Assembly (NCBI GenBank): GCA_944393695.1
Contig: CALYAY010000010.1
Coordinates: 994 to 64,993 of the forward strand
Direction of reading: 5' to 3'
DNA from: an uncultured Alphaproteobacteria bacterium
GTDB taxonomy: Bacteria; Pseudomonadota; Alphaproteobacteria; RF32; CAG-239
DNA length: 64,000 bases
The notes beneath the pieces are model-generated. The model ran no database searches. It was not told the DNA's origin and saw only the letters and a program-made list of their open reading frames with translations. Shown here piece by piece: positions 45,063 to 64,000 of the stretch. Every line of letters starts with the position of its first letter. The stretch's first letter is position 1. A program made the translations under genes and the position numbers.

Positions 45063-45168
45063 AAAAAGAAAGAGACTTTTTTCCAAAAGAAAATAGTCTC
45101 TTTCTTTTGACCGTAATGCAGATAGATTATTTAATCTGACAAAACAAAAAAAGAGAAAGTATAAACGC

Positions 45169-47611: not shown

Positions 47612-47665
47612 GGACTTTAAATAAAGTCTCCATCTTCCAACATATCCGTCATTCTTTTTCGGGCC

Positions 47666-48403
47666 TTAGAATACTTTCTTTAAGCATAATTTATTAATTG
47701 GACATTCAGCACAATGTTTTTGCCGGGCCATACAAAATTGGCTTCCCACATACCATAGAAAAGGATCAAGCATCCCCGGAAATTCTGGATAAATACTTCG
47801 AGCCCTGTAAATAATCATTTCATTTGACGCTTTTTCATCAATCAAACCTAAATTTATCATTATTTTTTTAACTTGAGAATCTGGAGAAATATCAACACTT
47901 TCCATATGTTTAAGCTTTACTTTCATCATTCTTGTTAGAATATTAACAGCCATTGTAGCAATTTTTATGCCACATCCTTTAAATGCCAAAAAGTTATAAA
48001 TAACGTCGGCACAATTTTCAGAACCTTTCCAGATACGTGATGCATCTCCTTCATACACTTCAACAATTTTTTTCACAGCTTCACAAAAAACATCAGACAT
48101 ATTTTTCTTAAAACGATGTTTAGTATGCTGCTTAAATATTGAAGAAATTGTCCCTGAAGAACATTTATTCCACTCGTTAATATCTGCTGTTCCAAGATGA
48201 TTTTCTACAATAAATGGAATACTCCAAGCATCATTTGCCCGGATTTGCCGATCCATTAAGCAACCAATTACAAAAAAGTGAGGATACTTCTTGTATTTTT
48301 TTAACTCTTCAAGAGGTAAACCTAAAGTCTGCTCTTTCTCATAATAATCCTTAGCTAATTTAACCAATGATTTTGTTACTTTATGCTCTTGAATCTTATT
48401 CAT
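47666..48403 (-). CDS. Endonuclease III-like HhH-GPD DNA glycosylase with a [4Fe-4S] cluster loop. Stand-alone and AT-rich.
   Basis: HhH 'FKGCGIKIATMAVNIL' (the Lys aligns with Nth K120), a downstream 'VDIS' Asp, and a C-terminal 'C-x6-C-x2-C-x5-C' (CMARQKHCAECPINKLC) Fe-S cluster loop. Confidence 0.55.
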   Translation of the reverse strand: MNKIQEHKVTKSLVKLAKDYYEKEQTLGLPLEELKKYKKYPHFFVIGCLMDRQIRANDAWSIPFIVENHLGTADINEWNKCSSGTISSIFKQHTKHRFKKNMSDVFCEAVKKIVEVYEGDASRIWKGSENCADVIYNFLAFKGCGIKIATMAVNILTRMMKVKLKHMESVDISPDSQVKKIMINLGLIDEKASNEMIIYRARSIYPEFPGMLDPFLWYVGSQFCMARQKHCAECPINKLCLKKVF

Positions 48404-48469: not shown

Positions 48470-49870
48470 CTACCTCTCTTTCAAACTCTCATTCAGATAC
48501 TTCATCACCGGAGAGAGGAGATATTCGATGACGCGGCGTTTGCCGGTTTTGATTTCGGCGGTCACGCTCATACCGGGTTTGAGTTGAATAATCTGCCCGT
48601 CCGCTTTGATTTTGTTATCCAAGAGCGTCAGCCGGGCATTAAACACCAAACCGAGTTTCTCGTCCTGTATCGCATCGCCCGAGATATTGCGGACTTTGCC
48701 TTTGATTGTGCCGTATTTGGTGAACGGGAAGCTGTCGATTTTGATTTCCACATCCTGCTCCGGTCGTACAAAGCCGATATCTTTGTTCAAAATCTGCACT
48801 TCCGCCTCAAGTTTATAATCTTCCGGCACCAGGTTCATAATCGGCTTGGCGGTTTCCACCACGCCGCCTTTGGTGTGATAAACCAGCTGCTGCACATAGC
48901 CAGACAGCGGCGCCTTGACCACCGTCCGCTTTAACGCCTCCTGATATTTAATCAGCTCCTGCTGATAAGATTCCAGCTGTTCGCGGTTTTCGGTCAATTC
49001 CTGCATCAGGTCCTTGTCAAACTCGGCCAAATACTGACGCTTTTGCTTTTTCAGCGATTCAATATTTGCTTCGGTCTCCGCCATTTTCTTGACTTGTACG
49101 TTGCGTTGTTCCTGCAGGTTGGTCAGTTCTTCTTCCTGCTCCAGAAAGGTCAGCCGCGCCAGAAGCTTCTTATCCACCAAAATCCGCTTTTTCTCAATCC
49201 GCTCCTCAACGCTCGGCAGCAGTTTCTCAATCCGGTTCAGCTCGGCCTGAATGGTGTCTTTTTCTTTCTCGGCCTTTACGATTTGCCCATCCAGAACTTC
49301 AATCTGGGCTTTTTTCTCAGTCATCTGGCTTTTAAGCAGATCCTTGTGCATTTTAATCAGATATTCGTCAATCTCCGGATTATAACTGAAGTTCGCTTCC
49401 GGATTATCGGTCAGCAGGGCCTTCAGACGGGCAACGGCAATTTCCAGAGCCTCAATCTCGTTTTCCACCCGGCTGATATTGGCCAGCACTTCGGTCTGAT
49501 TAAATTTAATCAAATCCTGCCCTTCTTTCACATATTGCCCCTCTTGCACGTAGATTTCCTCAATCTCGCTGTCGGTCAGGGTCTGGATGGTCTTGATGTT
49601 TGAAGCCGGCATCAGCTTTCCGGCCGAAGTGGCGATAATATCGATTTTGCCCAGGATTGACCACAAAATCAGCACCGTAAACATCAGCATAATAACGTAG
49701 GTCAGCAGCCGCGCGGCATGAGACGGTGGCATCTCGGTTACTTCCAAGACCGCCGGCAGAAACTCTTTCTCATGCTCGTTCATGCCTTTGATTTTGCAGT
49801 CTTTGGCTGCTTTCTCCTGCAAAAGCGCCAGCTTGGCAATATCCCAATATCTTTTAAGTTGTTCCCACAT
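48470..49870 (-). CDS. hlyD: Type I secretion membrane-fusion protein (HlyD family)
   Basis: N-terminal TM, a long coiled coil, and a C-terminal beta-barrel. 466 aa, immediately downstream of hlyB. Confidence 0.85.
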   Translation of the reverse strand: MWEQLKRYWDIAKLALLQEKAAKDCKIKGMNEHEKEFLPAVLEVTEMPPSHAARLLTYVIMLMFTVLILWSILGKIDIIATSAGKLMPASNIKTIQTLTDSEIEEIYVQEGQYVKEGQDLIKFNQTEVLANISRVENEIEALEIAVARLKALLTDNPEANFSYNPEIDEYLIKMHKDLLKSQMTEKKAQIEVLDGQIVKAEKEKDTIQAELNRIEKLLPSVEERIEKKRILVDKKLLARLTFLEQEEELTNLQEQRNVQVKKMAETEANIESLKKQKRQYLAEFDKDLMQELTENREQLESYQQELIKYQEALKRTVVKAPLSGYVQQLVYHTKGGVVETAKPIMNLVPEDYKLEAEVQILNKDIGFVRPEQDVEIKIDSFPFTKYGTIKGKVRNISGDAIQDEKLGLVFNARLTLLDNKIKADGQIIQLKPGMSVTAEIKTGKRRVIEYLLSPVMKYLNESLKER

Positions 49871-49876
49871 TGTCCG

Positions 49877-52036
49877 TCACTCCGCCGCCACTTCATTCGG
49901 CACAATCGGCGCGGTCTGGCTGTTCCACAGATAAGCGTAACGTCCGCCGCGTTTTAACAATTCGTCATGCGTACCGGTTTCGGTAATCTCACCTTTTTCA
50001 ATGGTAATAATCTGGTCGCAGTCCCGCACGGTCGACAGCCGGTGCGCAATCATAAACACCGTCCGCCCCTTGCAGATGGAGGCCATATTCTGCTGAATAA
50101 TCCGTTCGGATTCATAATCAAGCGCCGAGGTTGCCTCGTCAAAAATCAAAATCCGTGGATTGTTAACCAGTGCCCGCGCAATGGCTATTCTTTGCCGCTG
50201 TCCGCCGGATAAAGAGGCGCCGCGTTCTTCAATAATCGTGTCATATCCGTCCGGCAGTTCGGTAATAAACTCATGCGCACCGGCCAGCTTGGCGGCGGCA
50301 ATAATCCTGTCCATCGAAATTGCCGGATTAGTCAGGGCGATATTTTCGCGCACGCTCTTATTAAATAAGTAATTTTCTTGCAACACCACCCCGATTTGAC
50401 GCCGGAGCCATGCCGTATCGACGGTGGAAATATCAATCCCGTCAATCAGCACCTTGCCGCTTTCGGGAATATACAGCCGCTGGATCAGCTTGGTCACGGT
50501 CGATTTGCCCGAGCCGCTCGGCCCGACAAAACCGATTTTCTGCCCGGCTTTGACTTTGAAGTTCATCTTTTTCAAAATCTCCGGACCGTTCGGCACATAA
50601 CGGAACGTAATGTCCTTAAATTCCACGTCGCCTTTAATCTCCGGCATCGAACCTTTGGACAGGGTTTCGGTATTTTCAGCCGGATTGTTGAGAATATCGG
50701 AAAGCTTTTCAATTGAGATTTTCGCCTGCTGGAAATTCTGCCACAACTGCGCCAGGCGTAAAATCGGCTGCGTTACCCGCCCGGACAACATGTTAAAGGC
50801 AATCAGCTGCCCGACCGACAGCTCGCCCTTCATCACCAAACTGGCTCCGATCCATAACGTCAGCGCCATGGTGATTTTTTGCACCAACTGCACGAGCTGT
50901 CCGGCAATATTGTTGATATGCGATGCTCTGAAAGAAGACCCGACATAAGCCGCCAACTGCTGCTCCCACCGCCGCTGCATCTGCGGTTCAACGGCCAAAG
51001 ACTTAACCGTTTCCACACCCGAGACCGCCTCCACCAGAAAGCATTGGTTCTCCGCTCCGCGCTGAAACCGCTCGTCTATCCGCGCCCGCAAAATCGGCGT
51101 AAAGAACAAAGACAGCAACACATAAAACGGAATGGAGAGCAAAACCAGCAGCGTCAGAGTTTTGGAATAAAAGAACATCACCGTAAAAAAGATAATCGTA
51201 AAAAAGAAGTCAATAATCAGGGTTAAGGTCGAACCGGTCAAAAAGTTGCGGATGCTTTCCAGCTCATGCACCCGCGCCACCGTATCACCGACCCGCCGCA
51301 CGCCGAAATAAGACAGCGGCAGCCGGATAAGGTGCTTGAATAAACTTGCGCCCAACTCTACATCAACGCGGGTGGTGGTGTGCGAGAAGGTATAAGTGCG
51401 CAGCCCGCCGAGCAGAGTTTCAAAAATACCGATGCAGATTAACGCTACCATCAACACGTCAAGGCTCGACAACCCGCGGTTAACCAGCACCTTGTCAATC
51501 ACCACCTGAAACAACAACGGCGATACCAGCGCAAACAACTGTAAAAAGAACGAGGCCAGAATAACCTCGCCGAACAGCCTGCGATATTTAACCACCGCCG
51601 GAATAAACCACGAAATGTCAAACTTGCGGTTTTTGCCGTTGATAAACTCACGGCAGGTCATCATCAAGAGCCTGCCGTTCCATCTGTCCATAAATTCTTC
51701 TTTGCTCAAAACCTCGGGGTGGTTGCCTTTGGCGGGATCTTGAATCAAAACTTTGTCCTCAGCAACTTTGCCGAGAATAAAATAAGCCCCGTCTTTGCTT
51801 TGGGCGATTGCCGGCAGCGCCGTCTTGTCCAGCCGTTCCCACTTGGTCTCGACAAAGCGGGCTTTGAATGAAAATTCTTTGGCCAGCTGCAACAATTCAT
51901 ATTCTTCAAAATGCGAATTCTGCCGGTCATATTTATGCTTGATTTGGTCAATCGACACTGGCTTCTCAAAATAATTGGCCATAATCGCAAAACAGGCTAG
52001 CCCGGTGTCAATGTCTTGAAAAGAAGTATTATCCAT
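49877..52036 (-). CDS. hlyB: Type I secretion ABC transporter (HlyB family), with an N-terminal C39-like domain that lacks the catalytic Cys
   Basis: Strong similarity to E. coli HlyB, from memory ('FDISWFIPAVVKYRRLF', 'FLQLFALVSPLLFQVVIDKVLV', 'SYFGVRRVGDTVARVHELESIRNFLTG'). Walker A 'GPSGSGKST', signature 'LSGGQRQRIAIARAL'. Confidence 0.9.
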   Translation of the reverse strand: MDNTSFQDIDTGLACFAIMANYFEKPVSIDQIKHKYDRQNSHFEEYELLQLAKEFSFKARFVETKWERLDKTALPAIAQSKDGAYFILGKVAEDKVLIQDPAKGNHPEVLSKEEFMDRWNGRLLMMTCREFINGKNRKFDISWFIPAVVKYRRLFGEVILASFFLQLFALVSPLLFQVVIDKVLVNRGLSSLDVLMVALICIGIFETLLGGLRTYTFSHTTTRVDVELGASLFKHLIRLPLSYFGVRRVGDTVARVHELESIRNFLTGSTLTLIIDFFFTIIFFTVMFFYSKTLTLLVLLSIPFYVLLSLFFTPILRARIDERFQRGAENQCFLVEAVSGVETVKSLAVEPQMQRRWEQQLAAYVGSSFRASHINNIAGQLVQLVQKITMALTLWIGASLVMKGELSVGQLIAFNMLSGRVTQPILRLAQLWQNFQQAKISIEKLSDILNNPAENTETLSKGSMPEIKGDVEFKDITFRYVPNGPEILKKMNFKVKAGQKIGFVGPSGSGKSTVTKLIQRLYIPESGKVLIDGIDISTVDTAWLRRQIGVVLQENYLFNKSVRENIALTNPAISMDRIIAAAKLAGAHEFITELPDGYDTIIEERGASLSGGQRQRIAIARALVNNPRILIFDEATSALDYESERIIQQNMASICKGRTVFMIAHRLSTVRDCDQIITIEKGEITETGTHDELLKRGGRYAYLWNSQTAPIVPNEVAAE

Positions 52037-52478
52037 GGTTGCTCACAAGTCAGTTGCAAAGCTTTAATGAAAAATATCATAAAGAGAGAAAAGCAAAAAA
52101 TAAAGCAAAAATTTACACTTATTGATAATTAGTTTCCGGCATAAGAATAATCTGAAGTTCTATCCACAGGATCAAAACAAGTATCACTAACGGTTTAAGG
52201 AGAAAACTAACAAAACATTAATAGAACGATAAAAATAAAAAATAATTTCCTTGCATAATTAAAGTTATAGAGTGAAACTTATTACAAAATTACTCTCAGG
52301 GAGTGCAATATGGCGCATAGAAGAGAATCGTGGAATAACGTTTCCCTCACCGGACTACCATCATCTTGCTTGTTTTTAGATGTTTCTCTTAGTGCGCTCC
52401 GGTTAAAATTTCCTTTTTCTCGATTCTTTTTTCTGGTTTTCACCTTTTGTTATCTGCTTTTAAGTTACGCTTTCCAAA

Positions 52479-53483
52479 GTGCTAGTTTGTGGAGTCTTAA
52501 TAATGACGATATCTAATATTTTATTTTTTCTATTCTTACTTCCATTTCTATTTATTTTCAAGTTAGGTGGAACCTATGGTAGCGATGGTCTAGGACAAGC
52601 TTTTTATTTACTCTACTATTACGCTATTGCAATTTGGGGAATAATACTCCTTATTTTACATAAAAATACAAATAAGAAAATAAAATACAATATTTGGGGA
52701 ATAATATTGTTTTTGTTTATTACGTCCCACTATATTACTCTTTGCCGCCATGGGATTAAAGCTTTAGACTATCTATTCCCTCTTATTTTATGGCCTCCAT
52801 TAACAATTCTTTGGATATTAGTAAGAAAATTAAAATTTCGATATTTTTATTTATTATGTTTTGTGGCAGTTCCGATTTTTTTTAGTATAAAAGATTTTAT
52901 AAAAGAACTACAGTTCTCAATGACCTGCGAACAGCAAACACCACCAATACAGTATAACCCGATATATCTGCCAGAAAAATTTTTTCATATGGCCAATGGA
53001 AAGCTTGAGGCTAATATTATTGAAGTTGACGGAAAATATAATGAGAAAAAAGAGTGGATATCATATTTAGATGAACGGTTATATGAAGATTATCATAATC
53101 AAATTCTTGTATACACAAGTTGTTCTGAAATAAGACACATCAAAAATATTTTAAAAAATATTTCTGTAAATAATGTAGTATTATGTCATGACAGATCCAT
53201 AAAAGAAACTTCTTCCGAAGTCCAACAAATTGTTAATACCATAAACCTTGTTAAAGACGGAAACAAAGAACCAATAGTTACAGACATTAGATTGCGTCTT
53301 GCTGCAAAACCCTTTATAGGCAGCTTTCTGGCCAAAAACGGTAAAAAAAACATAACTTTTTGCACTTATTCAGATTATGATCCTCAAAATAACACTCTGT
53401 GGAGAAAGATCAAAACAGATAAATCATATTCAAAATTTATTAAAATTCAAAAAACAACAAAAAACTTGACAGGAGGCCAGTAG
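52479..53483 (+). CDS. Uncharacterised polytopic membrane protein (about 5 N-terminal TM helices plus a ~190-aa soluble C-terminal domain). AT-rich.
   Basis: ORF immediately upstream of the giant RTX gene. The likely start is at 52503 (MTISNILFF). No family recognised. Confidence 0.4.
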   Translation: MLVCGVLIMTISNILFFLFLLPFLFIFKLGGTYGSDGLGQAFYLLYYYAIAIWGIILLILHKNTNKKIKYNIWGIILFLFITSHYITLCRHGIKALDYLFPLILWPPLTILWILVRKLKFRYFYLLCFVAVPIFFSIKDFIKELQFSMTCEQQTPPIQYNPIYLPEKFFHMANGKLEANIIEVDGKYNEKKEWISYLDERLYEDYHNQILVYTSCSEIRHIKNILKNISVNNVVLCHDRSIKETSSEVQQIVNTINLVKDGNKEPIVTDIRLRLAAKPFIGSFLAKNGKKNITFCTYSDYDPQNNTLWRKIKTDKSYSKFIKIQKTTKNLTGGQ

Positions 53484-53549
53484 CAAACATTTATCCACTA
53501 ATCAGTTCATACCACAATTACAATTTTCATCATTCTAAGGAGATTTAAT

Positions 53550-56500
53550 ATGACTACTTTATCCGATTCTTCAACAATCAACATCAGTGATGAGCATAAA
53601 TATGCAATTTTAAGTAAACTGGCATATGAAAATCTTTCTCCAGGAAATATAAACAGTTTAGATAGTGAATTTTCGGAAGTAGAAAAACAATATTTAGAAG
53701 GATATGAAGTATTAGATAAGATATCTTTAAACAATGGCTTTCAAGCTTATTGGTTAAGAGACAAATCTACAAAAGAAATCATTTATACAATTTCAGGGAC
53801 AGACAGTATCTTGGATGGTGGACACCTTGATTTCGGAGATGATATCTCTATCGGAACCTACGGCATGGCAATAGATCAATTTATCTCGGCCTATAATTAT
53901 TATCAGGAGATGACCCATAACAACGGCGATACAATTTATAAAATAGAGAAAAGTTTAAACGCCCCTGAAGATACTGCATATATAGAATCAGAAGAAGGAA
54001 ATTTAACTGTATACTATTTTTTACAAGAAACAACGAACACAAACAGTGCAGGCAATTCATCTTTTGCAAATGCTACATTAACAGGACACTCTCTTGGAGG
54101 ACATTTGGCGGGTTTGTTGTCTAAATTTACAGGGAATCAAGCATATGTTTATAATGCGCCGGGGTATAGTAATTTTTCTGTTGATGGAGCATTCTTGGAT
54201 TTAAGCTTTGTAACAGCAGATGGCGATTCTTCCTACTATTTATCTTATGTAAATGCATTTGCTTCCTTATTTAATAAAGATTTTGGGGATAATAATGTTA
54301 CACACATTCATACAGCAAATGGTTGGGATTGGGTTGCAGGAATAAATGATGATAAATGGTCTAAAAGTGATATTTATACTTTATATACAGGGCTTGACCC
54401 TCGAGATTACCATAGTATCAATGGAATATGCACGGCCTATTACGCTTATGAAACAATTAAAGATATTGCTAATGGAGCGGAAAGTTTTCACAACGATAGC
54501 ACGATAACTTCATTTAATGAAACATTTGAAAACGTTTACAAAGCCTATTGTCTAAATAAGGGAGAAGCCTATCAAGAGCTTGATTATTCAGAATATGCAA
54601 ATATCAATCAGATTATTTCTGACATTAATGAATGGTCAGAGACACAAAAAGCAAATGGAGGAGTAATTAAAGTCGATTCCTTTAACCATTCTACCTCTCT
54701 ACCAATAACTGGAACTGGCGGTGCAGATATATTCTATACCGGTGGCGGCAATGATACCGTAGATGCCGGAGCTGGAAACGATATTGTATATGGAATAGAC
54801 TTGAATGGAGATAATTCAGCCGCGGCATCCTCTACGAAAACTATAGATCTTGGTGCCGGTAATGACAAATATTATGGTTCAAACGCAAAAGACAACATTA
54901 ATTGTGGTACTGGACGAGATTATGTTGATGCAGGCTCAGGAGAAAACTATATCGATTTAGGTGCAGATAACGATAAAGATACCGTCATTATCAACAACAA
55001 CGCTTCTGGCGTAGATACAATTGTTAATTTTACATCTCAAGATGAAATCAACTGTATCGGAGGTTTTAATATCTCTTCGCTACAACAAATCGGAAATGAT
55101 ATGATAATTTATGGAAACAACGGAAACAAAATCGTATTCAAAGATGCCGTTGAAAAAAATTCAATGCCGATGCTAGTACAAAACAATGACACATTATTAT
55201 ACTGGGAAAATGGAAAATACAACGAAATAAAATATAATCCTTATGCTATGGAAAATCCGACAGAAGAACATATTTGTGCATTATTGAGTAAATTGGCATA
55301 CGAAGATTTAACAGTTGGATTTAATTTTGATAACCTGAGTAAAGACAGATTCGCTCCGGCTGAAATAGCCTATATAAAAGAGAATTTTGATGTTATAAAT
55401 GTCAAAAATGATATAGAAACAGGATTTTTCGGATGTTTTTTGAAAAATAAAAAAACAGGAAAAATTTATAATGCCATAAGAGGAATAGATAGTAATTCTC
55501 TTGATGAGAAAGATATCATTGCGGATAACGAAATCAGAAACAAAGGTATGGCAATTGAACAGTTTATTGCTGCTTATAATTATTACATTGAAGTTATGAC
55601 ACCTAGCGGAAGTGTGTCCAACAAAATTGTGTATAGTTCGCAAAAGCCGGAAGGTGAAACAAACTGTGTCGAAGATAAAACAGCAGGAAGATACTATTAT
55701 CTCAGACCTTGGAGCGGAACGTCTACTCTAGGCAATAATACCGAAATTATCATTACAGGGCATTCACTTGGCGGACATTTAGCAGGTTTAGTTGCAAAAT
55801 GTGTTGATAATCAAGCAATTGTTTTTAATGCCCCTGCCTATGGAGCTGTTAAACAACAAAGTAAAATAAATTATATTGCAGATAACGGTTATGTCTATCA
55901 AAATATAAATAGTCACTATCTAGCAATTATAACAAGAATGCTTGAAGGCATCAGTTCAAATTCCAATATACATGCTATATATAGTAATGACTATTCAGAA
56001 TTTGCAGATAATATATATAGTTTATGGTCGATAGAGAAAAGTCTTAATACCATTGCTTCCCAATCAAATCCATTATCTCAAAGCAGTATAAATGCAATAA
56101 GTGACACGTATTATATTTATAACACGATAAAAGGAATAATAAGTGGTCCAGATATTTTTAACAATAAAGAAAATATAACCATTGAAACAGCTTTTGACAA
56201 CGTTTATCAAGCATATTTACTAGCTCATGAAAAAGAAAATATTACAATACCTTACGAAAATTCATCTCAAATTAAGGAGTTTGCAGATGAAATTGCAATA
56301 TGGCGTCAAAAATACTCGGAATATAATATATTAATAGATATAAAGAATCAAGATTCAACAAAATCAGCTTCAATAAGAGCAGAAGATGGAAATAATTTGA
56401 TATTTATTAAGAATGGGAAAAATAGTGTTACCTTAGGAACAGGAAATGATATCGTGTATGCAACCAATATTGATAAAGAAATTGGTACACAAGAAACCGT

Positions 56501-59453
56501 TTCTCCAGATAATCGAGTGTATTTAGGAGCCGGAAACGACATTTTTTATGGCTTCAACGGGAATGATGTCATTGACGGCGGAAACGATAAAGATGCAGAA
56601 ACTGATAAAAATATAATTTATCTAGGAGCCGGAGATGACGACTACAATGGTGGGGATGGAGTTGACATTGTCGATGGTGGTTCTGGAAATACCGGAAACT
56701 TGAATAAAAATATTTATGGTAACCTGGAATATTTTATGACAGATTCTGAAACTAATATAAATGATGTTAAATTAGAGGGAGGTAATGATGTATACATTGG
56801 AGGAAAGGGCTCAGATGAAGTAGATACTACCTGGGGTAATGATATTATTCTAACCGGCAAAGGAGATGATTATATTTACACTGATTTTTTTGATTCGAGA
56901 GATACAGATAAAAAGATTATCTATTTAGGAGAAGGAAGCGACAAATTTAATGGAGGAGCGGGAGATGATATAGTCGATGGAGGTTCTGGAACTAAATATA
57001 TATTTGGTAATGATAACGATCAATATTTTGAAACATTCACCCAAGAAATGTTATTAGATAATGAAAATGATGTAAATACAATTAATCTTGGAGCAGGAAA
57101 TAATATATACATAGGAGGTACGGGAATAGACAACTTAATTTCCAGAAATAATGCAGGAGAAAAAAATCATATCTGGTTGGGGGCTGGAAATGATACTTAT
57201 GACGGAGGAAACGGAGACGATATAGTTGATGGAGGCTCCGGAACAATAGGAGAATTGTCTAATGTTTTGCCTTTTATTAACATTCCTGAAGATATATTGA
57301 AGGACAGCCCAGAAGATACAAATACAATTAATTTAGGTCATGGAAATAATATTTATTATGGCGGGGCTGGAATAGATGTTGTGACCAGTGGTAATGGAAA
57401 TGATATCATTCAAGGAGGAAAAGGTAATGATATCTTGAACGGAGGTTCTGGTAACGATACTTATATTTATAACAGCGGAGATGGTTTTGATGAAATAACT
57501 GATACCTATGGAACAAATGAAATTGTTTTGGGTGAAGGGGTGCAGAGAGAGAATATAACGGCTGAATCTATAGCATCAAACAAAATCAAATTATATTTTG
57601 ATAACAATTTACAAGAAGGCATTAGTTTTGAAGGAAACCTTTCTTCAACAAATTTAGTGTTTGCAGATAATACATCTGTAAAAATTTCAGATGCAGGTTT
57701 CATTTTCAAACAACAAGATACAAATGAGAATATAACAGGAACCAAAGGAAATGATATTTTCTATGGAAATGGCGGAGATGATATAATTAACGGAGATGCA
57801 GGAGATGATATTTATATTTGGAATTTGGGAGATGGACTAGATACAATTAAAGATAAAAAAGGAAACAATATAATAAGGTTTGGAAAAGGAATAAAACTTT
57901 CAGATTTATCTTTTTCTCAAAATAATAGAGACTTGACGATAAATGTAAAAGGAAATGCTTCTGAAGGAATAACAATAAAGGAATATTTTATTGATCCAAT
58001 TAGCTCTTTAGACACAATCATACTAGAAGATGAACAACAAACATACCAAATTAATAATCTTAATATTGAAATAGATCACCCTCAAACAACGGAAGATACT
58101 CCTATTTATAGCACAAATGGGAATAATATTCTACATAATGCTCCAGGAAATAATGTAGTTTATTTAAATAATGGTAGTAACACTTTTCTTTGGAATATTG
58201 GTGATGGTATGGATATCCTCAGATTTGACGATTGCAATACTGGTGGAAAATGCAGTATTAAATTTGGTCCAGGAATTAGTGCTGAAGATTTATATTTCTC
58301 AACTATTGGAAAAAATGGAGTTGACTGGGATTATACAGATTTAAAGATATCTGTAAAAGGAAATGAAAATCAAGGAATCATTTTAGATGAATTTTTTGAT
58401 AAAAAAGTAATTAATCGTTTAGAAAAAATAATTTTTGATAATGGTGACGAACTGGCTTTAACCGATATAAAAATACATACGGCTTCTTTTAATGGTTCAG
58501 ATTATAATGACATTATCCATTATACTGATGGGATATACGCTAGTCATGGTTATGAGGGGAACGATGAAATGCACGGAGGGGATTCTGAAGACCAACTGGA
58601 TGGAGGAAATGGTGATGATTATTTATATGGATATAAATCCAATGACTTTTTAGTGGGAGGGGCCGGAGATGATACATATATCTGGAATCTAGGAGATGGA
58701 ATGGATACAATTTCTGATACTGATGATAATATAGGTGATACAATTTCCTTTGGTTCGGGAATTACATTCGAAGATTTAAAATTTATTGGAGATTTTGACG
58801 GATTAAGAATAATTATCAAAAATGACGAAACGCAAGGAATATTTATTCGTAATCAAATGCAATATGGAGATGTCAGAAGTTTAGATGAAAAAGCAGGAAT
58901 TGAATACCTGAAATTTAATGATGGAAGTACTGTTAATATAAAAGAAATAGGATTAAATCTTTATACTACAGAAGGAAGAAGCATTGATGGTTCTCCTTTT
59001 GATGATATAATTAATGGAGCCGAAAATGCAACATTAAAAGGCGGAGCCGGAAATGATACATATACCTACAATTTGGGTATGGGAGATTGTTCAATTGATG
59101 ATACTTCTGGTGAGAATGATAAAATTAAATTTGGAGAAGGAATAAGTTTAGATCAATTAAGTTATCGCACATATAGAGACAATCTAAATATCTCAATTGG
59201 TGATGGTAACAATAATATCACAATAAATAATTACTTTAGCACTAAAGAAAATTACCAGGGAAAAATTGAAACTTTAGAATTTGCTGATGGTTCTCAAATA
59301 AGTACCGATGCTGCTTTACAGCTGATTCAGGCGATGAACTCTTTTGGAGCCGACACGTCTTCAACAATGGATGCATTGTCCAATCCGACAGAAAATGTCA
59401 GCGATATGTGTAATCTCGCTGCCGGCTCGGATTTGATAAAGAAAGCAATCTAG
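53550..59453 (+). CDS. Giant (1967 aa) T1SS-type secreted protein with two tandem lipase-family-I.3-like alpha/beta-hydrolase domains, each followed by RTX GGxGxD nonapeptide beta-roll repeats, and a long C-terminal array of repeated beta-roll modules
   Basis: AAGGAG RBS. Domain 1 'YAILSKLAYENL...IYTISGTD...LTGHSLGGHLAGLLSKF'. Domain 2 at about aa 575 'CALLSKLAYEDL...NAIRGID...ITGHSLGGHLAGLVAKC'. More than 30 'GGAGNDxxxG' repeats. Recurrent 'GxGIxxxDLxFxxxxxDLxI' modules. No Cys-rich regions. Acidic C-terminus. Confidence 0.85.
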   Translation: MTTLSDSSTINISDEHKYAILSKLAYENLSPGNINSLDSEFSEVEKQYLEGYEVLDKISLNNGFQAYWLRDKSTKEIIYTISGTDSILDGGHLDFGDDISIGTYGMAIDQFISAYNYYQEMTHNNGDTIYKIEKSLNAPEDTAYIESEEGNLTVYYFLQETTNTNSAGNSSFANATLTGHSLGGHLAGLLSKFTGNQAYVYNAPGYSNFSVDGAFLDLSFVTADGDSSYYLSYVNAFASLFNKDFGDNNVTHIHTANGWDWVAGINDDKWSKSDIYTLYTGLDPRDYHSINGICTAYYAYETIKDIANGAESFHNDSTITSFNETFENVYKAYCLNKGEAYQELDYSEYANINQIISDINEWSETQKANGGVIKVDSFNHSTSLPITGTGGADIFYTGGGNDTVDAGAGNDIVYGIDLNGDNSAAASSTKTIDLGAGNDKYYGSNAKDNINCGTGRDYVDAGSGENYIDLGADNDKDTVIINNNASGVDTIVNFTSQDEINCIGGFNISSLQQIGNDMIIYGNNGNKIVFKDAVEKNSMPMLVQNNDTLLYWENGKYNEIKYNPYAMENPTEEHICALLSKLAYEDLTVGFNFDNLSKDRFAPAEIAYIKENFDVINVKNDIETGFFGCFLKNKKTGKIYNAIRGIDSNSLDEKDIIADNEIRNKGMAIEQFIAAYNYYIEVMTPSGSVSNKIVYSSQKPEGETNCVEDKTAGRYYYLRPWSGTSTLGNNTEIIITGHSLGGHLAGLVAKCVDNQAIVFNAPAYGAVKQQSKINYIADNGYVYQNINSHYLAIITRMLEGISSNSNIHAIYSNDYSEFADNIYSLWSIEKSLNTIASQSNPLSQSSINAISDTYYIYNTIKGIISGPDIFNNKENITIETAFDNVYQAYLLAHEKENITIPYENSSQIKEFADEIAIWRQKYSEYNILIDIKNQDSTKSASIRAEDGNNLIFIKNGKNSVTLGTGNDIVYATNIDKEIGTQETVSPDNRVYLGAGNDIFYGFNGNDVIDGGNDKDAETDKNIIYLGAGDDDYNGGDGVDIVDGGSGNTGNLNKNIYGNLEYFMTDSETNINDVKLEGGNDVYIGGKGSDEVDTTWGNDIILTGKGDDYIYTDFFDSRDTDKKIIYLGEGSDKFNGGAGDDIVDGGSGTKYIFGNDNDQYFETFTQEMLLDNENDVNTINLGAGNNIYIGGTGIDNLISRNNAGEKNHIWLGAGNDTYDGGNGDDIVDGGSGTIGELSNVLPFINIPEDILKDSPEDTNTINLGHGNNIYYGGAGIDVVTSGNGNDIIQGGKGNDILNGGSGNDTYIYNSGDGFDEITDTYGTNEIVLGEGVQRENITAESIASNKIKLYFDNNLQEGISFEGNLSSTNLVFADNTSVKISDAGFIFKQQDTNENITGTKGNDIFYGNGGDDIINGDAGDDIYIWNLGDGLDTIKDKKGNNIIRFGKGIKLSDLSFSQNNRDLTINVKGNASEGITIKEYFIDPISSLDTIILEDEQQTYQINNLNIEIDHPQTTEDTPIYSTNGNNILHNAPGNNVVYLNNGSNTFLWNIGDGMDILRFDDCNTGGKCSIKFGPGISAEDLYFSTIGKNGVDWDYTDLKISVKGNENQGIILDEFFDKKVINRLEKIIFDNGDELALTDIKIHTASFNGSDYNDIIHYTDGIYASHGYEGNDEMHGGDSEDQLDGGNGDDYLYGYKSNDFLVGGAGDDTYIWNLGDGMDTISDTDDNIGDTISFGSGITFEDLKFIGDFDGLRIIIKNDETQGIFIRNQMQYGDVRSLDEKAGIEYLKFNDGSTVNIKEIGLNLYTTEGRSIDGSPFDDIINGAENATLKGGAGNDTYTYNLGMGDCSIDDTSGENDKIKFGEGISLDQLSYRTYRDNLNISIGDGNNNITINNYFSTKENYQGKIETLEFADGSQISTDAALQLIQAMNSFGADTSSTMDALSNPTENVSDMCNLAAGSDLIKKAI

Positions 59454-59463
59454 TCAATCAAAC

Positions 59464-59503
59464 ATTATCCGGTTATCAAGTTCTTTCTTGATAACCGGAT
59501 AAT
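59464..59503. repeat. Perfect 17-bp inverted repeat (ATTATCCGGTTATCAAG-ttcttt-CTTGATAACCGGATAAT) directly after the giant gene stop
   Basis: Read directly in the sequence. Not followed by a T-run. Confidence 0.7.
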
Positions 59504-59529
59504 CCCAAATCTAAAAAGGAAAAAAATTA

Positions 59530-60222
59530 ATGACCAAAAATAACAAATCAATAAAAGATAAAAGTATTGCTGTCAAAACAAACTTTTTTACACAAGTATG
59601 GAAAAATTTGCGTGAATATCCGCTAGAAGTTGTTTTATATTTTTCTTTTTTTCTTCTTACATTATTTTCCTCTAAAGCCAATCATCTTTTTCTTTTTCCC
59701 TCGATACATCAGATTTTGTCAATCTTAATTGCGGGAATCTTTATCTTTTTTATATTAAAATATAAGAAAAGTTTTTTTGATAAAAATTTTTTCTACGTTT
59801 TTATTCTTCTTCACATTATTTTCTCGATTCTTCTTATTTATAATATGTATAGTGTAAAAATTAGAGGGATTAATTTCTTTTTCTTTCCTGCATTTGCCTG
59901 CTTCATGTATTTATTATCCCTCTTTAAATGGTATTCTAAGCAATTTGTAGTTAAAGTTTCGAATTATATATTTCTTCTGTATATTGTAGGAATAATAATA
60001 GCATTCTCTGTAAATTCTTTTTTTAGTGGAATTTTATTTCTTTTTATCTGTGACTATTATGCTATTTTTATGCTTTTATTTTTAATATTTTCTTCTCCAA
60101 ACGAAAATTCAGATGAATTAAAAAATTTTCAATCTGTTTGTCTGTTTATCTTTGGAGGCATTTCATACCCCTTAGTCTTCTTATATTTGACACCATTGGT
60201 AGCAAATATGATTTCCGAATAA
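59530..60222 (+). CDS. Uncharacterised Phe-rich polytopic membrane protein (about 6 TM helices). AT-rich.
   Basis: ORF between the two RTX genes, AAAGGA RBS, extremely hydrophobic. Confidence 0.4.
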   Translation: MTKNNKSIKDKSIAVKTNFFTQVWKNLREYPLEVVLYFSFFLLTLFSSKANHLFLFPSIHQILSILIAGIFIFFILKYKKSFFDKNFFYVFILLHIIFSILLIYNMYSVKIRGINFFFFPAFACFMYLLSLFKWYSKQFVVKVSNYIFLLYIVGIIIAFSVNSFFSGILFLFICDYYAIFMLLFLIFSSPNENSDELKNFQSVCLFIFGGISYPLVFLYLTPLVANMISE

Positions 60223-60245
60223 TAAAACTTTAGAGGAGAAAATCT

Positions 60246-63200
60246 ATGATAAGCTATTCATTAAAAATGCATTCATATAATGTTTATGGTACGAATGGTT
60301 CTGTAATTGCTCGTCATACAGGGTATAACCTTGTAGTTACAGATGACAATGGAAATGCAACCATTTATGGAGTAGATTTAGGGCCGGACGTAAATAATCC
60401 AGATAAAGCGTATATTTCTATAACAGAATCTACTGCTAAAAAGTTTATTTTTGTCAACAAAGAAAATCCAAATATTACACAAGAAGCTTATTGGGCTTCT
60501 GATACGACACAAGAAGATATTAACAAGTATGAATTTTATAATTCTGAAGAGTTGGCCTCTGGAGATGAGGCTCTAGAAGCATTTAACAAGATCAAATTAG
60601 AGGCAGCTTTAACAAATCTTGTTAATCAAATTGATTATGAACTAGGAATCCCATGGATTGATAATGGCCGAGTTTGTAATACAGCAACAAATTATTGGGG
60701 ATTGGAATATATTCCAAATTTTGATTCAAGTATTTACAATGATTTACCATCAAATGGTGAAGTCGGTTATTGGGGACACAATGATGACTATATAAATGCG
60801 GCAAACTATGAGCAAGCCCAAAAATTAAAATTTATTAATAATATTGTGGAACAACTTAGTCAATTAAATGCTATCGATGACATTTTAACAGACAACTATC
60901 CTTTTATTTCAGAAAAATACTTACAAATTTTACAGCCTTATTTAGAACGTGATTTTTTATATAAAGGAGAAGATATAACAGATATACTGACTAGTATTGT
61001 TATTGGTACATTACCTTTATCTAATGTAATAAATCTTAGTTACGATATAAAAGATAGCATTCGGGAAGCATATACTACAGCCGAAATCACCCGTTCACCT
61101 TTAGTAATTGACTTGGACGGGAATGGAATTGAAACCAATAAAGAAAATTCCACAGTTCATTTTGACCATGATAATAATGGTTTTGCAGAAAGCACAGGCT
61201 GGGTTGGCAAAGATGATGGTTTACTGGTTCGGGATTTGAACAATAATGGAGAGATTGATAATGGAACGGAGTTGTTTGGCAATAACTCCGTTCTTTCGTC
61301 TGGAGAAAAAGCAGCCAACGGGTTTGAGGCTTTAGCTGATTTAGACAGCAACGGAGATAATATCTTTAATAACCAAGATGAAGCCTGGAATCAGGTAAAA
61401 GTCTGGCAAGACGCCAATAGCAACGGTGTCGTTGATGAGGGAGAATTACTTACATTAGAGCAAGCTAATGTATCAGGAATTAATCTGGATTACAACTCTT
61501 CTTCAACAACCGATGAAAACGGCAATCAACACAATCAAACCGGTACATTCATCAAAACAGACGGCACAACCGGTTCAATTCACGATGTCTGGTTTGACGC
61601 CGATTATGCCGATACAATAGATAAAACAGAAATAACAATTTCCGATGATATTGCGGTTCTTCCCAATATTTCAGGCTTTGGCAATGTGCACGATTTGCAT
61701 ACGGCAATGGCTTTGGACACTTCTGGTGAATTAAAAAACTTGGTTCAGCAATATGCTACTGAAACAAATGTGGATAATAGACAAGAAATTCTGACTAACA
61801 TCATTTATCATTGGGCTGGTGTTCAAGATATGAATCCTAACGGACGAAATCCATCTTTGATATATGGTAATGTTTTGGGAGATTCTCGTAAATTGGAAGT
61901 ACTTGAAGAATTTATGGGAGAGGATTACTTGGGAACCTGGTGTTGGGGAGAACGGGACCCAAACCCGCATGGGCCGGCAGCTCCCTTTATTTTACAAGCT
62001 TTTGAAGATCTAAAAAATTATATTAATCACCAACTTCTGTCTCAAACACATTATAAATCTTTATTAGAAAGTATTATTCTAACATATAATGAAGAAACAA
62101 AGCAATGGACAGCAAATATTGATACTGCGATAACGATATTGAAAGATATTTATCAGAAAGATAACGAACAAGGATTAAATACTTTAAAAGAATTTTCAGG
62201 CTTGGTAACTAATAATTTTGCTTCAATAGCAGATATTGTTGTGAATGAATTTAAAAGTAAAGGAAATGCAGAAGGAGATCTTTTTACTTCAGAACTTTTA
62301 AATTTTGGAAATTACGTATTCGTAGCAACAGATGGAAATGATATTTTAAATGGAACAGAAGGAGCCAATTATCTAGACGGATATGCCGGAAATGATAATC
62401 TATATGGAAATAATGGCAATGATGTTCTTGTTGGAGGAGAAGGTAATGACTACCTAAACGGAGGAAATGGCGCAGATATATATAAATTTGAAATAGGTTT
62501 TGGTAATGATACAATTGATAATTCAGATAATAACGCTTCAAAAGAAGAACCAGACATTATTCAATTCGGAGAAGGTATATTACCGTCCAAAACAACTTTA
62601 GGGAGACAAGGTTTCGATTTAATTATTACAGTTTCCTATAATCCGGATGAAGAAGGTAATGTCAGAGAAGATGATTCTGTCCGAGTTTACAGCTATTTTG
62701 ATAAGCAAGGAACAGCTAGTGCTACAGTTGATTTTATTCAATTTGCCGACGGCACAAGTTGGGATTATGAATATGTTATAACTCATTGGAACAGCGTTCC
62801 TGACGTAAATGGCGGAAAAACATTCGAAGGAGATAATAATTTCAACACACTCAATGGAACAGCATACAATGATATTTTAATTGGCAATGGTGGAAATGAT
62901 GTTATTGACGGAGGAAATGGAAATGATCGTTTACTTGGAGGGACTGGTAATGATTATCTAGAAGGAGGATATGGAGATGATGTCTATCTATGGAATCTTG
63001 GTGACGGGATAGATACAATTGAAGATAAAGGAAATCATGATAAAATTTCTTTTGGAGATGGAATAACTTTTAACGATCTGACTTTCCAATGCACTAATGA
63101 AAATGATTTAAAAATATTTATAAAAGACAATGAGGGCCAAGGCGTTATAATCAAAAAATTTTTCTCCAGTTCAAATTATAAGATTGAAGAATTAATTTTT

Positions 63201-64000
63201 TCTAATGGTACTCAGGTTCACTTATCTGAAATTGGTTTGGTATTAAAACAGCTTTCATCTGATGAAATTATTAACAGTACTGACTTCGATGATATTATCT
63301 ATGGTAATGGTGGTAATGATACAATCCACAGCTATGACGGTGATGATGTTATTTATGCTGAGGGAGGCAATGATTACGTTTCAGGTTACGCCGGAGATGA
63401 TATTATCTATGGTGGTGATGGTAATGATACAATTTATGGAGAGAGCCGCCACCGGATTTATGACGAAGATGTCGGCACCGGAAACGATACTTTAATCGGA
63501 GGGAAAGGTGATGATTACCTCCGGGGTGGAAAAGGGAATGACATTTATATTTATAATCTCGGAGACGGGTCTGACACCATCAACGATGCCAACGGTCAGG
63601 ATACACTCAAATTCGGAGAGGGAATAAGTTTTGATGATTTGAAATTTACTCAAACCGGAGACGGAGAAAAAGATTTTTATATGACAATAAAAAATGATCA
63701 AAAACTTCTTCTTCAAGATTTAACAGATACATCCCGGGGAATTGATATTTTAGAATTTGCAGATGGTTCCAGTTTCAATGTAAAAGAAAATGGATTAACT
63801 TATTCTCAAACTGATGAAGATGAAACGATAGTTGCTTCCGATTTTGATGATATTATTTATGCTGAGGGAGGCAATGATTACGTTTCAGGTTACGTTGGAG
63901 ACGATATTATCTATGGTGGTGACGGTAATGATACAATTTATGGAGAGAGCCGCCACCGGATTTATGACGAAGATGTCGGCACCGGAAACGATACTTTAAT
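60246..64000 (+). CDS. Second large RTX-repeat protein (more than 1250 aa; the 3' end lies beyond the window). Novel N-terminal ~700-aa domain with EF-hand-like DxDxNG loops, then RTX nonapeptide repeats and duplicated ~168-aa modules.
   Basis: GGAG RBS then the ATG at 60246. Open in frame to the window end. 'LVIDLDGNGIETN', 'DLNNNGEIDNGTELFG', 'DLDSNGDNI', 'DANSNGVVDEGEL' loops. 'GGEGNDYLNGGNGADIY', 'GNGGNDVIDGGNGNDRLLGGTGNDYLEGGYGDD' RTX repeats. Confidence 0.8.
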   Translation, partial: MISYSLKMHSYNVYGTNGSVIARHTGYNLVVTDDNGNATIYGVDLGPDVNNPDKAYISITESTAKKFIFVNKENPNITQEAYWASDTTQEDINKYEFYNSEELASGDEALEAFNKIKLEAALTNLVNQIDYELGIPWIDNGRVCNTATNYWGLEYIPNFDSSIYNDLPSNGEVGYWGHNDDYINAANYEQAQKLKFINNIVEQLSQLNAIDDILTDNYPFISEKYLQILQPYLERDFLYKGEDITDILTSIVIGTLPLSNVINLSYDIKDSIREAYTTAEITRSPLVIDLDGNGIETNKENSTVHFDHDNNGFAESTGWVGKDDGLLVRDLNNNGEIDNGTELFGNNSVLSSGEKAANGFEALADLDSNGDNIFNNQDEAWNQVKVWQDANSNGVVDEGELLTLEQANVSGINLDYNSSSTTDENGNQHNQTGTFIKTDGTTGSIHDVWFDADYADTIDKTEITISDDIAVLPNISGFGNVHDLHTAMALDTSGELKNLVQQYATETNVDNRQEILTNIIYHWAGVQDMNPNGRNPSLIYGNVLGDSRKLEVLEEFMGEDYLGTWCWGERDPNPHGPAAPFILQAFEDLKNYINHQLLSQTHYKSLLESIILTYNEETKQWTANIDTAITILKDIYQKDNEQGLNTLKEFSGLVTNNFASIADIVVNEFKSKGNAEGDLFTSELLNFGNYVFVATDGNDILNGTEGANYLDGYAGNDNLYGNNGNDVLVGGEGNDYLNGGNGADIYKFEIGFGNDTIDNSDNNASKEEPDIIQFGEGILPSKTTLGRQGFDLIITVSYNPDEEGNVREDDSVRVYSYFDKQGTASATVDFIQFADGTSWDYEYVITHWNSVPDVNGGKTFEGDNNFNTLNGTAYNDILIGNGGNDVIDGGNGNDRLLGGTGNDYLEGGYGDDVYLWNLGDGIDTIEDKGNHDKISFGDGITFNDLTFQCTNENDLKIFIKDNEGQGVIIKKFFSSSNYKIEELIFSNGTQVHLSEIGLVLKQLSSDEIINSTDFDDIIYGNGGNDTIHSYDGDDVIYAEGGNDYVSGYAGDDIIYGGDGNDTIYGESRHRIYDEDVGTGNDTLIGGKGDDYLRGGKGNDIYIYNLGDGSDTINDANGQDTLKFGEGISFDDLKFTQTGDGEKDFYMTIKNDQKLLLQDLTDTSRGIDILEFADGSSFNVKENGLTYSQTDEDETIVASDFDDIIYAEGGNDYVSGYVGDDIIYGGDGNDTIYGESRHRIYDEDVGTGNDTL
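63351..64000 (+). repeat. Intragenic tandem duplication: an ~150-nt near-identical segment (4 mismatches) repeated with a 504-bp period (63351-63500 and 63855-64000)
   Basis: 'atttatgctgagggaggcaatgattacgtttcaggttacg..ggaga.gatattatctatggtggtga.ggtaatgatacaatttatggagagagccgccaccggatttatgacgaagatgtcggcaccggaaacgatactttaat' occurs twice. The second copy is cut by the window edge. Confidence 0.85.

Follow-up and report, generated by a model that had tools for sequence, protein, structure and literature searches.

Why should the genes of a type I secretion system (T1SS) in an uncultured gut bacterium be bordered by a block of AT-rich genes in which giant RTX proteins alternate with membrane proteins that match no known family? 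This question is raised by a 64,000-nucleotide stretch of contig CALYAY010000010.1 from an uncultured alphaproteobacterium, hereafter called the window (W where its coordinates are set beside those of comparison loci, which carry the labels L001 to L099). The transporter genes hlyB and hlyD are located on the minus strand, and pointing away from them on the plus strand are four putative cargo genes. These encode a polytopic membrane protein (mem334), an RTX protein with two lipase-like heads (lipRTX), a Phe-rich membrane protein (mem230), and a second RTX protein (RTX2) whose gene runs off the end of the window. An earlier note, made from the letters of the sequence, had reported these four plus-strand open reading frames (ORFs), and all of them are present at the coordinates it gave.

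The answer favored here, which is judged to be probable though by no means assured, is that the region is a T1SS cargo locus carrying an N-terminal polymorphic effector/immunity system of reversed polarity. A broader proposition is given an even chance of being correct: T1SS-exported RTX proteins of the FrpC class, which carry a self-processing module (SPM), might form, with their lipase-headed relatives, a widespread but unformalized group of inverted polymorphic interbacterial toxins. Members of this group would combine an N-terminal toxin, a membrane-embedded immunity protein encoded 5' of it, the SPM as a recombination junction, and a Ser-Pro variant of the SPM in which cleavage proceeds by other chemistry or has been lost. 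Polymorphic toxin/immunity systems are central to bacterial competition, and an inverted T1SS version would add a very common Gram-negative secretion system to them. Such a version would also supply a rule for annotation, in that a small upstream gene followed by the N-terminal domain of an RTX protein would mark a cassette, and this could aid the interpretation of thousands of "RTX proteins of unknown function."

Cassette turnover beside a conserved transporter

GC content changes abruptly at 52.0 kb. Over the region from 52.0 to 64.0 kb it is 0.27-0.40 per 1-kb step (0.31-0.35 in 2-kb steps), compared with 0.49-0.52 over hlyBD and 0.45-0.53 in most other parts of the window. It is most pronounced at third codon positions (GC3), where the four cargo genes have values of 0.22-0.24 versus a host reference of 0.58±0.05 (minimum 0.45) taken from 18 large ORFs at 1-41 kb; the values for hlyB and hlyD are 0.63 and 0.64. 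For the cargo genes this departure is far beyond chance. The earlier note had described a fall in GC from approximately 52.0 kb to the window end and had proposed that GC and codon usage be compared across it. Both the GC windows and the GC3 values bear out the fall, and uniform GC is thus excluded.

Matches of HlyB and HlyD to their NCBIfam models exceed the respective cut-offs (Table 1), and the transporter genes are divergent, on the minus strand, and of host-like GC, as the earlier note had described. HlyB contains the Pfam domains Peptidase_C39, ABC_membrane, and ABC_tran, and by these family assignments a genuine HlyB/HlyD-type T1SS pair adjoins the cargo block. The distribution of HlyB was scanned with one genome per species. 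Approximately 30 loci carry a HlyB that is 74-100% identical, all of them from metagenome-assembled genomes (MAGs) titled uncultured (gut) Alphaproteobacteria, and the identity of HlyD in related gut MAG loci is 67-99%. Titles among HlyB-bearing MAGs include "Azospirillum sp. UMGS63" and "Proteobacteria bacterium CAG:495," and one MAG derives from water-deer rectum, while more distant HlyB loci (~60% identity) belong to environmental Alpha- and Gammaproteobacteria. The carriers are uncultured Alphaproteobacteria of human and animal gut metagenomes, whose ecology has barely been characterized. The earlier note had placed the source organism no more closely than a Gram-negative anaerobe, and this is corrected here to a gut alphaproteobacterium.

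Conservation extends a short distance beyond the transporter and then ends. By blastn, L003, L012, and L037 match the core at W 48470-52296 with 92-94% identity, and similarity stops after it. The last portion of this core is the divergent intergenic segment, a conserved leader or promoter part of the cargo locus, and L012 has a second copy of W 52094-52296 beside another cluster of cargo remnants. Given the abrupt GC change at 52.0 kb and the metagenome-assembled source, the AT-rich block might be regarded as an artefact of assembly or binning, or as a recent foreign island unrelated to the T1SS. This explanation is very improbable. The whole block, with its junction, is identical across five independent metagenome assemblies and therefore is not an assembly chimera, and most related MAG loci of sufficient extent have an AT-rich cluster of RTX and membrane-protein genes next to hlyBD. 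Moreover, the leader is conserved up to W 52296, and the cargo proteins share a C-terminal tail specific to the clade. This tail (..LQLIQAMNSF..NPTENVSDM..LA..DLIKKAI) is common to the full-length RTX cargo of 12 related loci, with 38-64% identity over ~107 aa (28% in L039), and is presumed to be the T1SS secretion signal.

The cargo itself differs among close relatives. W, L012, L036, and L037 have identical HlyB proteins (100%) and yet carry different cargo. Alignments by blastn define one unit of exchange, the lipase cassette, which is made up of mem334 and the first ~448 codons of lipRTX and has sharp ends; its DNA is 99.1% identical in L003, 92.0% in L008, and 79.2% in L007. The encoded proteins are likewise mosaics. 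Compared with L008 and L009, lipRTX is 82-100% identical as far as about aa 430 and mostly 15-45% beyond that point, and RTX2 is 100% identical between W and L003 to about aa 350 and 40-50% thereafter. Among all relatives of RTX2, identity of the N-terminal domain ranges from 14 to 100% (some are unalignable) and rises to 74-92% at the start of the SPM.

Direct evidence of cassette switching is provided by L096 (10001-14635) and L097 (860-10142), which contain the same two modules, 99-100% identical, in opposite order. In both loci the hlyB-proximal module ends inside the SPM at the same residue (..NGIVDEAA, then stop). The distal module of L097 is fused to an RTX body to yield a full 2182-aa protein, and the distal gene of L096 is cut by the contig end. 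Truncated modules of this kind are found repeatedly. L003 has an extra 1.8-kb orphan pair (L003 7066-8830), inserted exactly between W 52296 and 52362, that encodes a mem334-like membrane protein of 376 aa and a lipase fragment of 186 aa, the latter ending right after GHSLGGHLAG. More orphan cassettes occur in L003, L012, L015, L018, L029, and L038, and in L012 (7129-9536, 15941-17732) truncated cargo remnants lie on both sides of hlyBD with no full-length RTX gene nearby.

Membrane-protein genes also occur in places where an effector gene is missing. Homologues of mem230 stand alone in L093-L095, and L092 (3869-15593) has at least nine small AT-rich membrane-protein genes, with mem334-like and mem230-like members included, accompanied by only a 236-aa SPM fragment and with no hlyBD within 10 kb of the array. 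This array resembles an immunity island composed of orphan genes. A tblastn search of both N-terminal domains against 72,556 plasmids for signs of a plasmid origin gave no match.

Rates of divergence argue that cassettes have moved independently of the transporter. Synonymous divergence (dS) between W and L008 reaches 0.71 in hlyB, compared with 0.15 in mem334 and 0.20 in the first lipase head, and because the cassette values are far below that of hlyB, the cassettes are, by this sequence measure, laterally exchanged between lineages. Between W and L003, hlyBD are 93.6% identical and 9.4 kb of cargo 99.1%. The earlier note had proposed that the whole block was acquired horizontally beside a resident T1SS. 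Lateral movement is borne out for the cassettes, but a single foreign insertion is not, since the divergent AT-rich cargo locus is, to judge from the related sequences, a standing hypervariable feature of this T1SS and not a one-off island.

Each variable N-terminal domain travels with a membrane-protein gene. In the window and 30 species-representative loci, 23 of the 25 SPM or lipase ORFs are preceded within 400 bp by an ORF that runs in the same direction and has one or more transmembrane segments (TM), compared with 101 of 360 other ORFs (Fisher p=1.7e-10). The two partners also diverge together. Paired identities of mem334 and the lipase head are 94/94, 73/81, 26/38-43, and 24/32%, a series that includes a distant pair in L099, where the SPM of the RTX protein is of the canonical Asp-Pro kind, and those of mem230 and the NlpC/P60-like domain of RTX2 are 100/100, 52/67, 22/42, and 15/40%. 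At least two other module types recur. Their membrane protein is either a single-TM protein of ~305 aa or a 5-6-TM protein of ~283 aa, and in each case an N-terminal domain of ~180-200 aa follows. Even in distant Alpha- and Gammaproteobacteria (Sedimenticola and others), RTX genes that have a lipase head or an SPM and lie beside an HlyB-type transporter are preceded, 2-16 bp upstream, by a small 1-4-TM gene (L047, 14609-22115; L055, 16599-22100; L064, 16689-22124; L077, 6119-7407), and L099 is similarly arranged.

The earlier note had likened the placement of substrate genes next to small hydrophobic proteins to that of toxin/immunity pairs. At the level of sequence, this likeness is strongly backed by the co-variation, the orphans, and the switching. 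The membrane-protein gene does adjoin the substrate gene and, more exactly, lies upstream of its RTX partner; the suggestion that membrane proteins might co-occur with lipase-RTX genes in other genomes holds as well, with a mem334-type gene always preceding the lipase heads.

The two modules and their putative partners

The first membrane protein had been described as a polytopic protein of no recognized family encoded at 52479..53483. This description stands, although the homologues of mem334 and some gene calls use the ATG at 52503 instead of the GTG at 52479. Hydropathy indicates five hydrophobic segments (about five TM) followed by a ~190-aa soluble C-terminal domain, which the K/R-rich loops suggest is periplasm-facing. 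The soluble domain has four conserved cysteines (Cys142/207/228/287) and the motif TCExxTPxxEYNPIYLPxxFFH. Neither Pfam nor NCBIfam gives a match to mem334, a Pfam search with all 17 members of its alignment revealed nothing meaningful, and a Foldseek search of PDB with its structural model (pLDDT 76) returned nothing at E<=0.001. The family is tiny, with 5 homologous clusters among 5.8 billion sequences and 14 distant representatives found by exhaustive profile search, and its members always lie directly upstream of a lipase-head RTX gene. None was detected in the scan of species-representative genomes, where the family was missed because L012, the representative whose HlyB is 100% identical, retains no cargo at this locus other than truncated remnants.

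The second membrane protein, mem230, agrees with its earlier description as a Phe-rich 6-TM protein at 59530..60222, having six hydrophobic segments joined by very short loops and a Phe content of 16.5%. It too lacks a family match in Pfam or NCBIfam. Its 10 homologous clusters are encoded directly upstream of SPM-RTX genes with a matching N-terminal domain. Ratios of nonsynonymous to synonymous divergence (dN/dS) are 0.21-0.30 for mem334 and 0.21-0.28 for mem230, which indicates that both are real genes under purifying selection, and their products are likely located in the envelope. No source annotation names any of the cargo proteins or membrane proteins.

The giant protein lipRTX carries GHSLG motifs at residues 179 and 737 and is matched by Pfam HemolysinCabind (1.3e-31) and Lipase_3 (3e-7), with partial NCBIfam RTX_toxin matches in its repeat body. 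Lipase_3 scores 30.8 bits on the whole protein (cut-off 22), whereas the isolated heads score 15.4 and 21.3 bits, below the cut-off. The longer motif GHSLGGHLAG is invariant in the lipase-head alignment and present in both heads, and the best solved relative of the head profile is 7ubz_B, a "T6SS lipase effector" (T6SS, type VI secretion system), at E=4.7e-5 over 72 residues. The start of head 2 resembles the N-terminus of lipase-RTX proteins that stand alone, and from this we infer that it was formerly such an N-terminus, ahead of which a second cassette has been fused in frame. Because head 2 has "SQSSINA" in place of the "HSI" found in other full-length heads, with Ser replacing the conserved His, it may be degenerate or inactive. 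The two lipase-like heads and RTX beta-roll reported earlier are thus both found, with this reservation concerning the second head.

The possibility that lipRTX is a family I.3 RTX lipase, a group that includes the Pseudomonas and Serratia enzymes LipA, TliA, and PML, was considered and rejected. It shares with these proteins a GHSLG motif, C-terminal RTX repeats, and presumed T1SS export. However, the catalytic domain is not of I.3 type: the NCBIfam PueAB model matches only aa 1256-1327, which lie in the RTX region, and no structure of an I.3 lipase is recovered by the head profile at E<=1. In addition, the length of 1967 aa with two heads differs from the 476-617 aa of family I.3, and I.3 lipases need no accessory gene.

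RTX2 was expected to exceed 1250 aa from position 60246, and 1251 codons lie in the window with strong RTX matches (Table 1). Its C-terminus is beyond reach, because the L002 scaffold has an N-gap at the repeat and L001 ends. The AlphaFold model of its N-terminal domain, built from 14 sequences, has a pLDDT of 73.8 and a pTM of 0.79, and its best fold match is the T6SS effector TseH (PDB 6V98). Further fold matches come from the permuted NlpC/P60/LRAT set and are Aichivirus 2A, the cysteine peptidase 3kw0, YiiX, CLN5, PLAAT4, and PPPDE. In this family, Cys144 is invariant at a helix N-terminus, and His9 and His24 are near-invariant on the first strands. In the model, this layout is the predicted catalytic arrangement of a permuted NlpC/P60 (LRAT/PLAAT/TseH-like) fold.

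Following this domain is a homologue of the SPM of Neisseria FrpC. Residues 285-453 of RTX2 match the FrpC SPM structure 6sjw_A (residues 415-591) with E=1.3e-43 by phmmer. In the canonical module, the side chain of Asp414 attacks its own carbonyl to form an anhydride (PMC7078468). The junction consensus in the clade examined here is TAExx[RS]-S|PL[IV][IV]DLDGDG, with S|P at 33 of the 36 SPM starts in the loci compared; D|P is kept only in L009 and L011 among L001-L038 and L092-L098, and is also found in L099. RTX2 furthermore has Asn at the position of FrpC D478, and the equivalent of D579 is kept. Since Ser replaces Asp, the canonical Asp-anhydride cleavage cannot run. Either cleavage has been lost in this clade, which would leave the SPM as no more than a hinge that folds with Ca2+ and a junction for recombination, or it proceeds by other chemistry or a separate protease. 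The canonical Asp-Pro module has been adapted as the "NeissLock" tool, and the Ser-Pro variant might be of interest for protein engineering.

Two other well-known classes of RTX toxins were rejected. A HlyA-type pore-forming cytolysin is disfavored by the lack of a HlyC-type acyltransferase, as judged by a family search of the real ORFs of 40-64 kb, and by the absence of predicted TM in either RTX protein; the NCBIfam RTX_toxin model gives 224 and 205 bits for the two proteins versus a cut-off of 1000. A MARTX toxin is disfavored because neither a CPD autoprocessing domain nor MARTX repeats appear in a Pfam scan of both proteins. The earlier note had reported that no hlyC-type gene is present and had reasoned that the substrates are enzymes or adhesins and not acylated pore-formers. 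The family search agrees with the first statement, and the lipase-like and NlpC/P60-like N-terminal domains, together with the lack of a hydrophobic pore domain, agree with enzymes.

A proposed inverted effector/immunity system and its rivals

In the effector/immunity system proposed here, the T1SS signal would be C-terminal and the exchangeable toxic domain would be N-terminal. Given a C-terminal signal, the immunity gene would be expected upstream, and displaced cassettes would accumulate on the upstream side as well. The variable domains would include a Tle-like lipase and a TseH/PLAAT-like NlpC/P60 cysteine hydrolase. Each would be joined through a junction (an FrpC-type SPM in RTX2, an RTX-like linker in lipRTX) to an RTX beta-roll body and the C-terminal tail. 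Recombination within the conserved junction would switch cassettes composed of an immunity gene and an N-terminal domain, leaving truncated orphan cassettes on the hlyB-proximal side. Ca2+-dependent RTX folding would keep the effectors inert in the producer cytosol. After secretion through HlyBD, they would enter a target cell and act in its envelope, a site suggested by the pairing of membrane-embedded or periplasm-facing partners with lipase and NlpC/P60-type hydrolases. The upstream inner-membrane protein would be the cognate immunity factor, neutralizing effectors that arrive from sister cells and thereby guarding the envelope of the producer.

Several considerations weigh against this proposal. 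Toxicity, immunity, and secretion are all inferred from sequences and models, and an RTX protein released by a T1SS would still have to cross the outer membrane of a target cell. Neither membrane protein matches a known immunity family, and mem334 is without a significant fold relative. In contrast to these polytopic proteins, the Tli and TsiH-type immunity proteins known so far are, to our knowledge, lipoproteins or soluble proteins of the periplasm. Furthermore, lipRTX lacks an SPM, and no partner gene of its own accompanies the second head. The Ser-Pro junction and the Asn substitution in RTX2 rule out the canonical cleavage that would release the N-terminal domain as described for FrpC, and FrpC-family proteins have been linked to host interaction, as illustrated by the attenuation in pigs of a strain with SPM-deleted ApxIVA (PMC7078468).

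This last observation could also favor an explanation in which the RTX proteins are exoenzymes secreted for use against host or diet, with roles in lipid or cell-wall scavenging, colonization, or virulence. The membrane proteins would then be accessory factors, such as a maturation or activation factor, a foldase-like helper, or a secretion regulator. Some lipases do need a membrane-anchored periplasmic foldase (Lif) encoded by an adjacent gene, and a small gene comes first in hlyC-hlyA as it does here. T1SS-secreted RTX lipases and proteases are classical exoenzymes, but those of family I.3 require no extra gene product (PMC3034196). A periplasmic helper would also be without obvious access to T1SS substrates, which bypass the periplasm. 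Left unexplained by an exoenzyme function are the truncated orphan cassettes that retain the membrane-protein gene, the stand-alone copies and arrays of such genes lacking an effector, and the extreme strain turnover beside an identical transporter. The closest structural and sequence relatives of the N-terminal domains, moreover, are antibacterial T6SS effectors. Overall, exoenzymes with accessory factors are considered an unlikely explanation, although one that retains some weight.

The nearest known system is frpDC of Neisseria meningitidis, and this kinship revises the statement of the earlier note that the block is not a described locus type. RTX2 is an FrpC-family SPM protein, and the layout parallels frpDC in that a small gene lies directly upstream of the RTX gene, the homologous SPM is followed by RTX repeats, and the locus adjoins an HlyB-type T1SS. 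On this point, and in regarding the block as a one-off insertion, the earlier reading needed correction; in most other respects it was right. Certain features distinguish the two systems. The catalytic Asp-Pro has become Ser-Pro and D478 has become Asn, the protein encoded upstream has six TM here and is a lipoprotein of FrpD fold in Neisseria, and the NlpC/P60-like domain is unrelated to FrpC residues 1-414. We know of no description of cassette polymorphism with orphan arrays in frp loci.

Neisseria FrpD binds FrpC's N-terminal domain with sub-nanomolar affinity (PMC5233953, PMC5472700). Partly on this precedent, the locus could instead serve FrpC-like clip-and-link adhesion, in which the N-terminal domains would be retained at the surface or cross-linked to host or neighboring cells and the upstream proteins would act as anchors or receptors, as proposed for FrpD. 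The bona fide SPM homologue in RTX2 and the shared gene order fit such a role. However, the scissile Asp has become Ser in 33 of 36 SPMs of the clade, such that anhydride-based linking is not expected, and the N-terminal domains are hydrolase-like with conserved nucleophiles. The polytopic helical partners imply an inner-membrane location and, not being surface lipoproteins, cannot display a secreted domain. This alternative is therefore regarded as improbable.

An antibacterial role for frpDC has been raised before. Bayer-Santos et al. hypothesized that FrpC and FrpD form a T1SS antibacterial effector/immunity pair, and they showed homology between an antibacterial effector of the type IV secretion system (T4SS) and N-terminal parts of 221 RTX proteins (PMC6759196). 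The roles of FrpC and FrpA have been a puzzle since the 1990s. If the broader proposition of an inverted toxin class is correct, it would give a function to the long-enigmatic FrpC/FrpD pair, and the comparisons reported here would offer independent support for the 2019 hypothesis.

Polymorphic toxins such as CDI (CdiA-CT/CdiI), Rhs, and MafB offer a second point of comparison. Like them, the present locus has a conserved body with an exchangeable enzymatic end, a linked small gene that co-varies with that end, a junction motif (compare VENN and PxxxxDPxGL), truncated orphans, and lateral exchange of cassettes. In the established template, the toxin is C-terminal, the immunity gene lies 3' of it, and export is by T2, T5, T6, T7, or PVC systems (Zhang et al. 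2012). In contrast, the variable domain here is N-terminal, the presumed immunity gene is 5' with orphans upstream, export would use a T1SS with a C-terminal signal, and the presumed immunity proteins are polytopic. The T6SS effectors Tle (7UBZ) and TseH (6V98), the best solved relatives of the N-terminal domains, likewise exemplify envelope-directed hydrolases encoded beside a protective partner. Unlike those cases, no T6SS marker or context is found here, delivery would be by T1SS within a giant RTX protein, and the partner proteins are unrelated.

In the literature searched, no description was found of cassette polymorphism, orphan arrays, or switching in T1SS/RTX loci. The nearest statements are the hypothesis on FrpC and FrpD and a remark that places Min-Wnt domains ahead of RTX repeats, toxin domains in this N-terminal position having been mentioned in passing in 2025 (PMC12419801). 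RTX bacteriocins such as Rhizobium RzcA show that RTX proteins can be antibacterial, although their mechanism and immunity are uncharacterized (PMC3034196). A paper on Rickettsia CRCT/CRCA treats the T1SS only as a possible export route and was set aside as not comparable.

Feature coordinates and the flanks of hlyBD

The features of the locus and its flank are collected in Table 1.

Table 1. Features of the T1SS cargo locus and the adjoining flank, in window coordinates
Feature	Coordinates	Strand	Basis or remark
AbiEii toxin	46110-46976		within second AT-rich block
AbiEi-like antitoxin	46976-47611		within second AT-rich block
Unassigned 245-aa protein, C-terminal Cys cluster	47666-48403		GC3 0.24
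hlyD, T1SS membrane-fusion protein, 466 aa	48470..49870	-	TIGR01843 387.1 bits (cut-off 208.65), Pfam HlyD_3
hlyB, ABC transporter, N-terminal C39-like domain, 719 aa	49877..52036	-	TIGR01846 1045.9 bits (cut-off 725.55); identity of 79-100% across ~30 MAG loci of gut Alphaproteobacteria
Divergent intergenic segment, conserved leader/promoter part of cargo locus	52037..52296	.	blastn
Lipase cassette, exchange unit (membrane-protein gene + first ~448 codons of lipRTX)	52362..54894	+	blastn
mem334, 326 aa from ATG 52503 (GTG start at 52479 also readable)	52503..53483	+	putative immunity protein of lipase head
lipRTX, giant RTX protein, 1967 aa, two lipase-like heads	53550..59453	+	Pfam, NCBIfam; exact copies on 7 contigs
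Lipase head 1, aa 1-380, GHSLGG with Ser181, conserved His288	53550..54689	+	alignment, profile search
Lipase head 2, aa 561-960, GHSLGG with Ser739	55230..56429	+	32-34% identical to head 1; Pfam Lipase_3 2.7e-4
RTX / HCBP-related repeat body of lipRTX	56430..59270	+	HemolysinCabind (8 stretches), HCBP_related, 31 GxGx[DN] motifs
Conserved C-terminal tail of lipRTX	59271..59453	+	presumed secretion signal
Perfect 17-bp-stem hairpin at module boundary	59464..59503	.	10 bp past lipRTX stop codon
mem230, 230 aa, 6-TM, 16.5% Phe	59530..60222	+	putative immunity protein of NlpC/P60-like domain
RTX2, 1251 codons in window	60246->64000	+	HemolysinCabind 2.1e-43, HCBP_related 2.7e-15
RTX2 N-terminal domain, aa 1-284, predicted circularly permuted NlpC/P60 / LRAT-like cysteine hydrolase fold	60246..61097	+	
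FrpC-type SPM of RTX2, aa 285-455, Ser284-Pro285 in place of Asp-Pro	61098..61610	+	phmmer vs PDB 6sjw_A
RTX2 middle region + RTX repeats	61611..64000	+	gene runs off window

The hairpin between the two modules has the same sequence as hairpins that follow RTX genes in L012 and L037, and probably represents a terminator that these loci have in common, placed where the modules meet. A search of 44-64 kb for Rfam families found none, and a promoter scan gave a count not above the shuffled expectation.

On the opposite side of hlyBD there is a second AT-rich, strain-variable block at 44500-48403, which includes the AbiEii/AbiEi-like pair and the unassigned 245-aa protein. Parts of this block are common to L012, L013, and L003, and different genes occupy the position in other relatives. 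A metallo-beta-lactamase-fold protein and a second ABC exporter are encoded at 43861-44625 and 12494-14263, respectively. Both have host GC and are probably ordinary chromosomal genes; the precomputed Pfam list for the former includes Anti-Pycsar_Apyc1, and the exporter is 32% identical to HlyB.

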